A stretch of DNA of 57,379 nucleotides, the filler included, from Dugesia japonica (Eukaryota), in NCBI GenBank assembly GCA_001938525.1. It is 5 parts of 5 records of this genome, joined end to end, with 100 filler letters (N's around TTAATTAATTAA, not from the genome) between each part and the next. Parts side by side here need not be neighbours in the genome. Positions count along the whole stretch, not along the records: positions 40,162 to 48,300 come from MQRL01648148.1; positions 48,401 to 57,379 come from MQRL01639337.1; 3 more parts are not named here. One strand, given 5' to 3'. The notes under the pieces were generated by a model. The model was not told where the DNA came from. It saw only the letters and a program-made list of their open reading frames with translations, and ran no database searches. Below are positions 43,056-50,200 of the stretch, piece by piece. Numbering within the stretch: the first letter of the stretch is position 1; the number at the start of each line of letters is the position of its first letter. The position numbers and the translations under genes are program-made.

Positions 43056-43523
43056 TGTTGGGGTGAAACACCTCTTAAAGAAGGAAAATAAGGCACAAAA
43101 CCCAAATCAGCCACGAGGAACAGTAGGGCCATTATATTTACCTATAATGAAATTCAAAAGGAAAAGCAATTATGATCTGGGAAGGTTATAATAAAAATAA
43201 CCATTAGAAAAGAATTGGAAATGGATACGACGAACCGGGCGACATAAAACTAACCTACATCAGTATTGGAATTAAAAAGAATTAATAAATTCATAATAAA
43301 ACTCAAGAAAATCATTATGGGAAAATAATTAAGTAACAGAAAAATATTAATTAATTTTGAAATAAAAAGAAGTAAAATTAGTTAAAAATCCGTTTTACAC
43401 GAATAACTCCGTTCAGGAAAATCAAAGAGAATCCGGGTAAGAAAATCCAGAAAGAAAGTAACAAGAAGCATTAGAATTTGTTACCACCATCCAGAGGGTT
43501 GCTGAAGGGCTTTCAAGATTGAA

Positions 43524-43752
43524 CCAATCAAGTACCTAAAAATAAAAGTAAAACATGAAAAGAACCATCACATGGGCCTCTAAAAATAATCACCAATCAG
43601 AGTTCTAAAACTCTATGAAAATTTTGAACACATGGCACTAACACCAATAAAAATACGAGATTTCAAATTAAAAATAGTACCCAATGATAATGATGCTGGG
43701 TTGCATCGGAAACCCGTATAAAAAGAATCCTGATTTCAGTGAAAAACACTCA
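43524..43752 (+). promoter_or_regulatory. LTR promoter: CCAAT boxes, MEF2-like sites, TATA
   Basis: CCAAT at 43524/43593/43644/43681; CTAAAAATAA x2; TATAAAA at 43717; spacing conserved with the 34 kb copy. Confidence 0.75.
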
Positions 43753-44002
43753 CAAAAAAACCTGAACAAATTTTACTCTCTAACTACTGATCGTGCTCCA
43801 CAATTTTATTAATTTTTCAACTCAAACCAAGATTAATCTATTAATCAAGAATAATTATCACTTCTCATCATTAACGAGTCAAGAACTAGATAACTGAACC
43901 TTCCACCCGTCAACGTCAAAAAAACAAGAATATATTATTCACTAGCCAAGGAACCGTCTCGAACCGTTGCAGAAAATTGTCACTCATTCTAAAAAAGCAA
44001 AA
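43745..44002 (+). other. Putative ATG-free common leader exon ending in A|GT
   Basis: No ATG in ~260 nt. Donor AA|GTAAAA is weak, but the equivalent in the 34 kb copy is AA|GTGAGT; gttgcagaa is shared upstream of both. Confidence 0.5.
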
Positions 44003-45364
44003 GTAAAATGTTAATTTCATTGTATGATTATATTTATAAATAATAATTTAAAAGAAAAACTTTTTATTAATTTATTTGATAATTTTTATTAATTATATCA
44101 CTAAGACAAAACCTGGGGAAACTTTTAATCAATTCATATTCGATTATAGGCGAGATTGCTGTTATGATCCGTTCTGTCCACTTAATTTGGCAACTCACAC
44201 TGAGATGATTTGTCAACACGAAATTTTCTTTTCATTTCGCAACAATTATGATATCGGTGTTAAAGATCAAATTCTGCATAAGATTATGGCATAAAATTTT
44301 TGTTTCCAAAACATCGCGCCTGCGCTCGTACCAGTAAGTAATACATCCACTAGTTAACATTGTTAAATTATTTTGCCATTAAGATAGTGCGGTTAACTAT
44401 GGTGCATTGGGATCATAAGCTCCATTAAGTAAATTCCAATTTTGTTATTTAATTCCAATAGTTAACGTGAATAAAACCATTTTTATTCAGAGGTAATGCG
44501 AGTGTTTTTTACCTACGTATAGCTAACTAATAAATTACGCTATAGAATCGAGAATGCAAATTCTGCTAATGACTAAGAATAACCTGCATGTACACGCAAT
44601 GTAGAAGGCCATTGAATATCTGTCTACATACCACGTTTTTCAAATGACACATTTCAGAATGTTATTCCTAACTATGTTTGCCATTATAAGAAAAAAAATT
44701 CTTTTCTTTTATGCTTGTATCACACACAGTGTCCTAACAACACTCAGGCTAATTGAGGATGGGGTTGCTAGGCAACCACATGATGCAATGATTTGATTTT
44801 TCAGATTTCTCATTTCCTAAAAAATTAAATAATAAAGTGAAATTCAATTATGTAAACAGGGAACGAGGGAAAAGAAATCCGTGTCGCCAATTTGCGTAAC
44901 TTTCACAAATTGTGGCAGAAATTGATGGTGTTGGTTTAAGTTTAACCTTAGCACTGTTACTAATTTTTTTATTATTATTATCACTATTATAAGCCCAACT
45001 ATTAATATTATCGCGAGTTAACCGTAATAATATTTTTGTTACTCGCATGATTGTATAGGTATTGCTTCCAGGGATTAGTCTGGTTATTACTAGATTGTCA
45101 TCAGCACGCATATAATACCGGAAAGTATCGTTACCTGTAAAATTACCTTATTTATAATCCGACTTGAGAGTGAGTATTCTACTATGTCACTACTACTGAT
45201 TTATATTATTGTTATCGGGGCAATGATTTTATCATTAGTATTAGCTTTATCCGTATGGGTTTCAGCATTATTGACATTACCATTTTATTAGTGTTACTAC
45301 CTTACTCATAAAATTGAAGGGCATCGTGGGGTAATGTTTCTCGTGAAACTCAACAACTTTAGCT

Positions 45365-46375: not shown

Positions 46376-46734
46376 TGCATTCCTCTTTGAATAAATCACA
46401 GGCCCTGAATAAAAAACTGCGGGAAACCAAGGAGGACTTCGAACTCACTTGGGATTTGTATCGGCTGGCAAAACGTCGATAGGAGGCGGAAATAGCCACC
46501 ACCAACCATAAAGTATCTCGTTATAAGAAGAAATGTATCGCTTTCAAAAAGGAAGCCGAGGCATCCCTCTTGCAGGAGCGAACCTGGAAGAAACAGGTTG
46601 AATCTTTTTCGTAGATAATACGGTCTAGCCATGACCGAGAGAACCAACTGGTTAACGACATTTTACTTGTCCCAAAAAAAATACCTCTTGAGCCATTGAT
46701 GATCGAGAAGGGCACCCAAACACATCGGGCTTAA
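46376..46734 (+). pseudogene. LTR cassette D
   Basis: ttcAG|TG CAT TCC; two stops; ends PLEPLMIEKGTQTHRA*; AATAAA at 46753. Confidence 0.7.
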
Positions 46735-46858
46735 TATGAATTAACTTTTATAAATAAATCAATTATTCAATCGTTTTTATGAGTTCAGATTTTTTATCCT
46801 AATGTTTTACCTAAGCTTCGCTGTTTAGTTGCCTTTATACTAATCTAATTTCTTTCAG

Positions 46859-47239
46859 TGCCTCGTATCACTTTTCCTAACAGTCTCCACCGGTGTCACT
46901 GTATAATGCGCCGCCTGCTAGTTGAGCGTCATTTAAAGCGGAAAACGGATAAAGCTCTGCTTAAACATCTGAATCACCGAGATAGTCTCATTAAAAATCT
47001 TGATAACATACTAAAGAAACAGTGATTTAGCAGCACAAACCAAGGCTCTGGAATCCGAAACCAAACAACTGTTGCAAAGGAAAATAGATTTCCTAAAACA
47101 ATACATAGCTGACCTTTCCCGCAAGATTGGCAATCCAACTTGGGTCCAATGGGACAACAATAACGACGTCGCCGCCTTTAATTTTACGGTAACGGATCCA
47201 ACTCAGTGGTTAGTCCCAGGAGCTCTGGATCTGATGTAA
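46859..47239 (+). pseudogene. LTR cassette E
   Basis: ctaat..ttcAG|TG CCT CGT; one frameshift near 47022; AATAAA at 47251. Confidence 0.75.
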
Positions 47240-50200
47240 ATGTTTTATGAAATAAATGTGTATAATTAACGTCGTATTCTTTTTAAATAAGTTATTAATA
47301 ATAGAAAAAATGGTGAACCCGAATACAAATGTCTGTGGGCGCGCACCTCCCATTAAGAGAGAGGTCAACCACCATGAACTGAATACCTACCTTAGGGACG
47401 GTGGGTTAAATTCTTGAAAGGGTTTCCCTGATGGCTGTTTTCCCTCAGCCGTATTGTTCTTACCATCCAACTCAGGTGGAACCCCAACACTTATATTATA
47501 AGACATTATATGGTTTATTGTGTTTTATACGATTATATTGAGTTAATTATGTGTATTATTTGATTCTATTGGTTTTATAATATGTATATGACTCATTATT
47601 TTGTGTATAAGTCCTATTGGTTCCTTGTGTGTATAAGACTCTTTAGGGCTTTATGTGTATAAGATCACATTGGTTTTATTGTTTGTTAAATGCCTTATTA
47701 TTTGTCTTTATTGGGTTTCTGTATGAAACTGTAAGGGATTTATGTTCATCTATGCAAGTTTCGAAAACATTGCATAGACGTCTATCTATACTTTGAAAAA
47801 TTACCGATACATATATGTAATGGACAAAAAAGTTAATTCACTTCTATGCAATATTTATGTTATGTTTTACATGGGATTTTGAAATTTTTTACTGACTGCA
47901 ATGTTTGTCAAATTACATAGACATCATTGCAAATATTGAACAAACAGACTTATATGCTATGCTTCAAAATATAAGATGGACGTATATGTAATTAAATTCA
48001 AAAATACATGGGTATCTATGTAATTATGTTACATTTGATTAATAATCTCATGAAATTCTATAAAAACACTAATAACACAAAATCCTATGTATATCATTTG
48101 AAGCTCTGTATATCATATTATTGATATTATTAATTTTCAGACAGAAAATTGTCGCAATAAATTGAAAACTTACAAGTAATTTTTGGTTTAATTTATTATT
48201 TATTTATTATTTTTAAGAAATGAATTACAAAGCATTATAAATAGTATCAATGAATTAGATAATGGTTTTTACCCAACAATTCAATAAACTAATTAATTAA
48301 NNNNNNNNNNNNNNNNNNNNNNNNNNNNNNNNNNNNNNNNNNNNTTAATTAATTAANNNNNNNNNNNNNNNNNNNNNNNNNNNNNNNNNNNNNNNNNNNN
48401 ATGTAAATATTTATGTTATCGGTTCGAGTTTTGGGACCGCAGCTACGAGCATCACTGGGATCCATGATCCTTTTTTCAAGAAAATTTGCATGGGTTCTTT
48501 TTTTTCCTTGCATTTCCTTGCCTTTATTCCGAATCGTCTATGAAAATAAAAGATATTGTCTGAACTTATTAACCTGGCTGTTTTATTTGATTCATGCTGA
48601 ATTGCTGAAATTTCAGTTTTGAGCTCAATAATTATTGATATGAATGCTGAGAGATCTGTTAAAACTCGAAATCAGTCATTAATGTGTCAAACATCAAACC
48701 CAGATTTTTATGGATTTGGATTCCTGTAACATTATATGTTGCGCTACGGATTTAAGATATTAAAAGAATGACTAATGGAGCATGACATTATTGTTGATAT
48801 CTATTTGTGGATCAATTTGGTGGAAATGTTTCGACATTTCTCTTAGAATCACTGATGATTGTGCNNNNNNNNNNNNNNNNNNNNNNNNNNNNNNNNNNNN
48901 NNNNNNNNNNNNNNTGTTTTGTCAAAGATTTGATGTAGTTGACTTTCTTTTGTTTTGAATTATGGTTTCTTTCAATTTTTCTTACGCCTGTCACTGTTGG
49001 AGTCTAGATATTTTTAAAATTCATCGAGAACATTTTATGGAAGATTTTATATCAAATAAAGGTATATCGTTTATGACCTTATGATACTTGATAATTGAAA
49101 AATGGCGTCAATCTGCATTAACCATAGTGAATGATTTTCAAAATAATTCAGAAACTTTATTGAAATATGATTGCTTTCTGAGATTCCATTTCTGATACCA
49201 ACATTATATTCCAAAAATATTTGTGCATAGTAAAAATTAACAAATATCTATAAATAATTTGAATATTATATTTTTATTTTTACAGTTAATTCTAACAATT
49301 TATTTTTAGTGACGCAACAATTGCTAATTTAAAATGTAAAACGCTGCTATTTAATATTTAAACGCTGTTGGGAATCAAAATATCTACCGCAAAATTGTAT
49401 ACCGGTATTGAACTTTATTAATTTAAAAAGACAGTAATTATTATTGGACCCAATAAAACAACGTTAGTATAATTATGGTTTTTAATATATAATAAAAATT
49501 ATTAGACGTGACATATACTAACGTTAAGAAGTATTTATTATTGTGTTAATAATTTTACTATAGATAAGTCTTATTAACTCTTTTTTTACGGTTACAAAGA
49601 TTACTTATTACGGCTTAAAATGATTACAAAAAATCAATAATAAACCACTCACGTTACAAGCATATCAAGGGAGCGAAAACAATGCAAGGTTAATGGACAA
49701 TCATCAGTGATTCTAAGAGAAATGTTGACATGAGACATAATCAATATCGGGGTATACGGAGAGAATATTTCACTTGACTAATCTTTTTAGTACTGTTTGT
49801 TAAAAAATTGATACAATTCCGAATTGGTTGATTGTGAATTATATATCGTTATTCTTTTTTAGTATATTTGCTTCTAATTTTTTAACTACTGAACTAACAA
49901 ATAACTGAATTGTGATTTTCAATTGCTTTTAAAACCAATTTTTCCGTGAGTGTATCCTAGATAGTTTCTTATTAGTTGATTACCGATTCTCAACATTCTC
50001 CTTATATAATTAGTTGTTTTCTATTATTCTAAACGTTATATTCTGATTCTTCGCGATTGGAATTTTTCGATATTATTAACAGTCTAATTCGTAGGTTTTG
50101 TGTTTAATAAAATTAGATTTTTTAACCAATTAATAAATAATTTCGTCTATAATAATTTATTTACTAAAATAAATAAATTAATTTCTTTTTAATTAATTTT

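Follow-up and report, generated by a model that had tools for sequence, protein, structure and literature searches.

The stretch of DNA analyzed here (the window) comprises 57,379 nt of Dugesia japonica sequence in five joined records, and between positions 43056 and 47489 it contains an element that looks like the solo long terminal repeat (LTR) of a retrotransposon. Behind a promoter-like region and a leader, this element carries a series of cassettes (A to E), three of which (C, D and E) are, by codon comparison, true protein-coding sequence. The features of the element and of its relatives, copies of which were counted within the window only, are the following (the slash in AG/TG and similar motifs marks the predicted splice point).

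43056..47489, plus strand: solo-LTR-like element of 4434 bp, with TG..CA ends and 4-bp flanks identical at 3 of 4 positions
43524..43722, plus strand: promoter-like region with four CCAAT boxes and TATAAA
43725..44002, plus strand: ATG-free leader with a predicted transcription start, ending in A before GT (candidate donor at 44003)
45363..45562, plus strand: cassette A; an acceptor followed by ATG at +2, with a stop at 45413, an uncertain frame and no separate AATAAA
45582..45791, plus strand: cassette B; acceptor with CTAAT, ATG at +3, frameshift at about 45680, stop at 45780, AATAAA at 45786
45866..46218, plus strand: cassette C; coding, 116 codons long, with ATG at +2 and a stop at 45991
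46376..46758, plus strand: cassette D; about 119 codons, AG/TG start, two internal stops (46480 and 46612), AATAAA at 46753; coding; basic, coiled-coil-like product
46859..47256, plus strand: cassette E; about 127 codons, AG/TG start, frameshift at about 47023, AATAAA at 47251; coding
47310..47489, plus strand: GC-rich conserved tip (49% GC); two of the four copies have a TATAAA-like motif about 165 nt before the end
1..1539, plus strand: second copy, broken and of a diverged lineage; contains the 3' part of C, followed by D, E and the tip
33866..34897, plus strand: third copy, lacking cassettes; has the promoter, the leader, a GTGAGT donor at 34410, AATAAA and the tip
4021..4391, plus strand: isolated third copy of cassette E, 5'-truncated, with AATAAA after it

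The element starts with TGTTGGGG at 43056 and ends with CCCCAACA at 47489, i.e., it has TG...CA ends with a short inverted repeat; the target-site flanks are CGTA on the left and CTTA on the right, and an AT-rich repeat lies on both sides. Given that contigs of other runs tile the element with 0 to 7 differences and extend into the right flank, and that one contig links 43047 directly to 47519 without the element, it is not an assembly artefact. Related right ends at 1539 and 34897, together with a more distant one at 2719, point to a dispersed family with a fixed end, and the promoter and poly(A) signal motifs inside the repeat are kept between copies. In the five contig sets that were searched, related copies cover the promoter, cassettes C to E and the tip far more densely than 44.2-45.8 kb (which is not a measure of copy number), and they differ from 43056-47489 at the stop of A and at the first stop of D. 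In contigs of two runs the right end (47489) is fused to the left end (43056) with 3-7 letters between; these joins may represent LTRs in tandem, junctions of circles or an effect of the inverted ends on the alignment. A scan of metagenome, prokaryote and viral contigs with the tip pattern gave 12 matches, none alike beyond the pattern itself. The copy at 43056-47489 is a dead relic, probably of recombination between two LTRs, and selection acted on its replicating ancestors.

An earlier, preliminary description of this DNA had reported that cassettes C, D and E recur in the same order at 1-1288 and had suggested that they were under selection at the protein level; both points are borne out by the codon comparison, from which stop-bearing codon pairs and frameshift codons were excluded. 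The proportions of synonymous (pS) and nonsynonymous (pN) differences are 0.75 and 0.25 for C against 1-257 (73 codons), 0.74 and 0.28 for D against 412-764 (114 codons), and 0.82 and 0.17 for E against 908-1285 (122 codons). For the three pooled (309 codons), pS is 0.77 and pN 0.23 (Fisher p 4e-46), with 83, 63 and 181 differences at codon positions 1, 2 and 3, respectively. The third copy of E (4021-4371) gives a pN/pS of 0.44 with each of the other two E copies. By comparison, the two shifted plus frames yield pN/pS values of 1.3 and 2.0 and contain 20-25 stops, and the spacers are 58-60% identical between copies versus 55-56% for shuffles. Judged by this codon pattern, C, D and E are true coding sequence that was under purifying selection inside two LTR lineages; A and B are probably two further protein genes.

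The cassettes are built like terminal exons. Their YAG acceptors have first exon bases at 45363, 45582, 45866, 46376 and 46859, and a branch-like YTRAY motif is found 11-20 nt upstream of 6 of 7 acceptors versus 21 of the 72 YAG sites in the region. In 7 of 9 cassette copies (the exceptions are A and C of 43056-47489) AATAAA occurs no more than 21 nt past the stop, against a background of about 10% per 30 AT-rich nt; the preliminary description had placed this signal after B, D and E, where it indeed lies 6, 19 and 12 nt past the stops, respectively. The AT-rich spacers of that description are confirmed as well, with a GC content of 20-24% compared to 38-48% in the cassettes (38-39% in A and B). 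A start follows 15 of the 72 YAG sites in 44003-47240, so that an acceptor with a start is not in itself rare; having a start was in part what the acceptors were picked for, which leaves conservation at D and E as the unbiased evidence.

At D and E, AG/TG is present in both copies, in the frame in which a preceding A gives ATG, and has been retained despite saturated synonymous sites. For both D and E, similarity at the protein level sets in at the acceptor, and each copy has in-frame stops 4-9 codons upstream of it. The first Met of D is codon 109 in 43056-47489 and codon 15 in the left copy, so none is shared near the start, and 9 of the 15 residues of E ahead of its first Met are identical. 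Given that D and E begin with AG/TG and that the copies of D share no early Met, the start codon would likely be completed by a leader with a final A, and D and E likely obtain their ATG from the splice itself (A/TG). No GT[AG]A donor common to both copies is found inside D or E, and therefore these two are unlikely to be consecutive exons. There is no convincing paralogy among the cassettes of the LTR (best E-value 0.9). Cassette B contains a stretch EHLDETD..C..FPL. Upstream of A, at 44850-45310, there are hydrophobic stretches (at 45181-45288, hydropathy 2.98 over 19 residues) that could be a decayed membrane-protein cassette or merely ATT-rich sequence.

The promoter-like region has CCAAT boxes at 43524, 43593, 43644 and 43681, four within 200 nt (Poisson P about 1e-4), and TATAAA at 43717. 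The copy at 33866-34897 keeps three CCAAT boxes and TATAAA (at 34054-34184) at nearly equal spacing (51/37/36 versus 51/38/36 nt). The leader of 43056-47489 contains no ATG (shuffle P 0.04) and neither does the leader of the copy at 34 kb (P 0.03); both end in A before GT (GTAAAA at 44003, GTGAGT at 34410), a few bases out of register. A non-coding leader with a donor is thus recognizable by sequence behind one promoter in two copies, the exact donor being uncertain. The 34-kb copy has no cassettes between its donor and AATAAA. In its interval 34410-34651, after the donor, there is a CAG/TG site near 34563 followed by a 7-codon frame, which may be the remnant of a deleted cassette.

The reading that we favor, with a probability of roughly 65%, is that one leader is spliced onto each of several cassettes inside the LTR. 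The LTR's own promoter would drive the cassettes from a transcription start near 43745, and the short non-coding leader would be joined to one acceptor at a time. Each message would likely end at the next poly(A) signal, with A using the poly(A) site of B. The last A of the leader and the TG of D or E would form ATG, and A, B and C carry an ATG of their own 2-3 nt past the acceptor. With less assurance, D and E may be proposed to be basic coiled-coil nuclear regulators (E transactivator-like) that would serve the life cycle of the element, as the accessory proteins of complex retroviruses do. The adenovirus major late unit expresses structural genes of a DNA virus from one promoter through a non-coding tripartite leader and alternative acceptors and poly(A) sites; its splicing has been demonstrated experimentally, whereas here splicing is predicted. 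A more far-reaching version, which we regard as falling somewhat short of an even chance, is that the LTR of a flatworm retrovirus-like family is a self-contained unit of the adenovirus late type, with a promoter, a start-supplying leader and five or more genes, that hundreds of solo LTRs spread the accessory regulators over the host genome independently of gag-pol, and that subfamilies gain and lose cassettes in modular fashion.

Several observations weigh against this reading. The donor GTAAAA at 44003 is weak and is not exactly aligned with the donor of the 34-kb copy, and cassette A has neither a branch-like site nor AATAAA. All eight cassette copies in the window (A-E and the left C-E), as well as the third copy of E, are broken. 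The codon comparison covers only 2-3 copies; one minus-strand frame also has a low pN/pS, 0.47, with 8-9 stops versus 2-3 in the plus frame, as expected of a shadow of the plus frame with shared third positions; and no second copy of A or B is found in the window. Three raw RNA runs under the same species label were searched (5,229 million letters, no host-gene control, another strain possible). Of the 163 reads that aligned, mostly on the flank repeat and the tip, none is 99% alike, and depth over 45290-47317 is zero in 10 of 13 bins and below 1 in the other three. Among the joints listed for these runs and for the five contig sets there is no GT..AG joint from the leader donor; the contig sets are DNA-like, with unspliced pieces across spacers and flank, and are thus uninformative on expression. 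Finally, no family, relative or confident fold was obtained for any cassette in collections that cover the host poorly.

Against this background, the architecture put forward in the preliminary description, a solo LTR with a promoter, an ATG-free leader and five cassettes, stands as far as the motifs go and is less secure for the coding nature of A and B and for the donor. The latter had been put at 44002; GT does occur at 44003, but the position is not fixed, as the best donor of the aligned third copy is a few bases off. The description of each cassette as running from an acceptor to a stop is correct in that YAG acceptors and stops are present, with the qualification that all five are interrupted and the frame of A is not settled. 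A battery of accessory genes in the LTR agrees with the selection on C, D and E and with the terminal-exon build, while the coding of A and B and the leader junctions are predicted. The statement that every solo LTR is an autonomous expression unit is not supported: all cassettes in the window are broken, one LTR copy has none, and RNA cover is scant.

Splicing from a common leader has to be weighed against other ways of expressing the same genes. The acceptors could be joined to another upstream exon, from a donor elsewhere in the full element or from a short phase-1 coding exon, to which we assign a small but appreciable chance. [quoted passage not shown] However, the TG straight after AG at D and E in both copies is needed only to complete ATG, A, B and C have an ATG of their own, and conserved promoter boxes with an ATG-free leader are located directly upstream, also in the diverged copy; were this explanation true, solo LTRs would not express the cassettes. 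Somewhat less probable is an operon resolved by trans-splicing of the host spliced leader, where the pre-mRNA would be cut at each AATAAA and the next cassette would gain a leader. The distance from AATAAA to the next acceptor, 80-131 nt, is as in flatworm operons, the spacing of which has a median of 99 bp in S. mansoni (PMC12582326) and peaks near 100 bp in M. lignano (PMC8629364). The reported flatworm spliced leaders end in ATG (PMC12582326), but this ATG would suit the frame of B only; for A, C, D and E it would open another frame, which stops after 1, 16, 4 and 15 codons, respectively (after 4 and 25 for D and E of the left copy), leaving D without a usable start.

It is quite improbable that the cassettes are separate unspliced genes, expressed from cryptic promoters in the AT-rich spacers or through leaky scanning, with incidental AG sites. 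The lack of any junction among the joints listed for the RNA runs and contig sets, the chance-like frequency of YAG sites with a start after them (15 of 72), and the unspliced expression of the small open reading frames (ORFs) of the MDG1 group with alternative poly(A) sites (part of PMC11952523) would all be compatible with such genes. Against this explanation, the two copies of D share no Met close to the conserved N-terminus, the conservation of E extends ahead of its first Met, and the spacers that would have to harbor promoters are conserved no better than shuffles, except for the acceptor and AATAAA. Least probable of all is that the cassettes are host exons or pieces of other elements captured into the LTR, the codon bias being older than the capture. 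No known relatives are available to reveal their origin, and the 34-kb copy has the promoter and the tip without cassettes; yet in two LTR lineages, whose synonymous sites are saturated, the cassettes and their order have persisted along with the acceptors, poly(A) signals and a homologous tip, and therefore selection acted inside the LTR.

The cassette proteins themselves yield few clues. The E protein has a basic N-terminal half, in which 14-17 of 54-63 residues are Lys or Arg, together with a heptad stretch and an acidic-aromatic tail; the D protein is basic and helical. An AlphaFold model of E from a single sequence contains helices only (pLDDT, the confidence score, 46). Pfam gave nothing above the cut-off for any cassette, the protein search with cassette E retained 0 of 9 candidates, the Atlas search with the third copy of E gave no match, and a PDB search with a cassette protein returned only E-values of 0.19-0.56. 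The single match of E among 1.84 billion representatives, a tandem-repeat protein, was rejected as spurious, and a 20-residue viral match to E was dismissed as chance. These blank searches carry little weight because the env fragment described below has no match among longer proteins and the host integrin has one close relative among 65 matches, i.e., coverage of the host is poor. At 1540-2719 lies the terminal part of a sister LTR type, oriented likewise, with a 130-codon frame (2080-2472) that has one stop and an ATG 2 nt past AG and whose second half has a weak bZIP_1 match below the cut-off (E 0.032); this LTR type suggests the same design in another family.

The orientation of the unit relative to its parent element can be discussed with the help of one neighbor:

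27101-32841, minus strand: decayed gypsy GAG-ENV-POL element, with a PF24664 env-like fragment (E 1.5e-24) between gag and pol pieces

This element has a primer binding site (PBS)-like sequence at 32836 and, by eye, a ubiquitin-like stretch at 30259-30774; a different LTR type (TGTTGGGCTAGA), found again on the plus strand at 39031, interrupts its integrase. The placement of env between gag and pol is found in the neighbor at 27.1-32.8 kb, the link of which to the LTR at 43056-47489 is only putative. In the left part of that LTR, 43232-43240 (plus strand) is a 9-nt match to part of the PBS-like sequence at 32836, possibly by chance.

The unit may lie in sense orientation in an enlarged U3 region, which is slightly favored, or, each a little less likely, in sense orientation in an enlarged R region or antisense relative to gag-pol. 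Sense orientation is suggested by the CCAAT/TATA cluster about 660 nt from the left end and by an AATAAA that three copies keep about 240 nt ahead of the right end; two of the four tips also have TATAAA about 165 nt before that end, with AATAAA after it in one. In this plus-sense case the LTR would have a short R, and the battery would occupy U3. The antisense position is favored by the 34-kb copy, located upstream of a minus-strand gag fragment (knuckle) and of the PBS-like TGGTGCC at 32836, 1 kb away; against it, the third copy of E follows a plus-strand gag fragment, and the integrase of the neighboring element abuts a different LTR type that starts at 27101. Orientation cannot be read from adjacent gag fragments, and this approach was rejected given the contradiction between the minus-strand fragment at the 34-kb copy and the plus-strand fragment at the third E. 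No PBS follows the right tips on the plus strand in the window, and the folding of the four tips reveals no strand preference (z -0.1 to -1.7).

Single pieces of the arrangement are known from other elements, according to the portions of the retroelement literature consulted here. In MMTV, the sag ORF lies in the LTR, and three U3 promoters are able to transcribe it (PMC12789967, PMC9412291); this is a close exception to the premise of the preliminary description that LTRs are normally non-coding. Sag resembles the cassettes as an LTR-internal protein gene that promoters of the same LTR can reach, and it is made from spliced RNA, as proposed here for the cassettes, but it is one ORF of a vertebrate retrovirus, as opposed to three to five genes with a series of acceptors and poly(A) sites, and no sequence likeness was found. 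In the springer subclade of Drosophila errantiviruses, the start of env is completed by splicing from an AU dinucleotide (PMC12992720), a splice-made start codon such as we propose here; springer has one env gene in the internal region, whereas the A/TG split would occur here at two cassettes inside the LTR. The sORF1 and sORF2 of the MDG1 group (PMC11952523) are small accessory proteins of a gypsy-type element on a short transcript with an internal poly(A) site; unlike LTR-internal cassettes, these are two ORFs upstream of gag and are unspliced. The antisense ORFs of Retand, Grande and RIRE2 (PMC11963269), conserved extra ORFs with no known function, would be a model if the unit is antisense, although they are found in plants, between pol and the 3' LTR.

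Among large flatworm gypsy elements with accessory ORFs, Burro/GYPSM1 and the GAG-ENV-POL errantiviruses of Platyhelminthes (PMC6431247, PMC13524379) are comparable; the gag-env-pol order is reported for Burro (PMC6431247) and for flatworm, nematode and bryozoan errantiviruses (PMC13524379). LTR-internal genes are not described for these elements in the consulted portions of the two papers, and the supplement of PMC13524379, as far as consulted, gives no LTR coordinates for 6 of 6 S. mediterranea elements. Nothing on LTR-internal genes was found in parts of PMC8532177, PMC5408684, PMC13238120 and PMC12801592. In the literature searched, outside of which are the Burro discovery paper and Repbase, no account was found of a spliced unit with several genes within a gypsy-type LTR. 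As far as these sources go, an LTR gene, a splice-made start, small ORFs with an internal poly(A) site and antisense ORFs are each known, and the multi-gene combination in an LTR is new.

The rest of the window is AT-rich animal DNA that also includes a SAC3/GANP gene. The integrin-alpha-like gene at 6233-8749 has an open frame of 838 codons, which looks like a single large exon, and one close relative (50%); its named animal matches are flatworm proteins of low identity. Four near-identical direct duplications of 210-414 bp (98-99%) in 51184-55970 are probably artefacts of scaffold joining.

Annotation treats LTRs as non-coding and masks them, and batteries of selected small genes such as C, D and E are consequently overlooked by standard pipelines. 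If the splicing model is true, an invertebrate gypsy-type element reaches the level of accessory genes of complex retroviruses, and recombination to a solo LTR preserves the whole unit. The model comes with five predicted junctions, two of which would create a start codon, and with protein families without known relatives that may act on the host nucleus.

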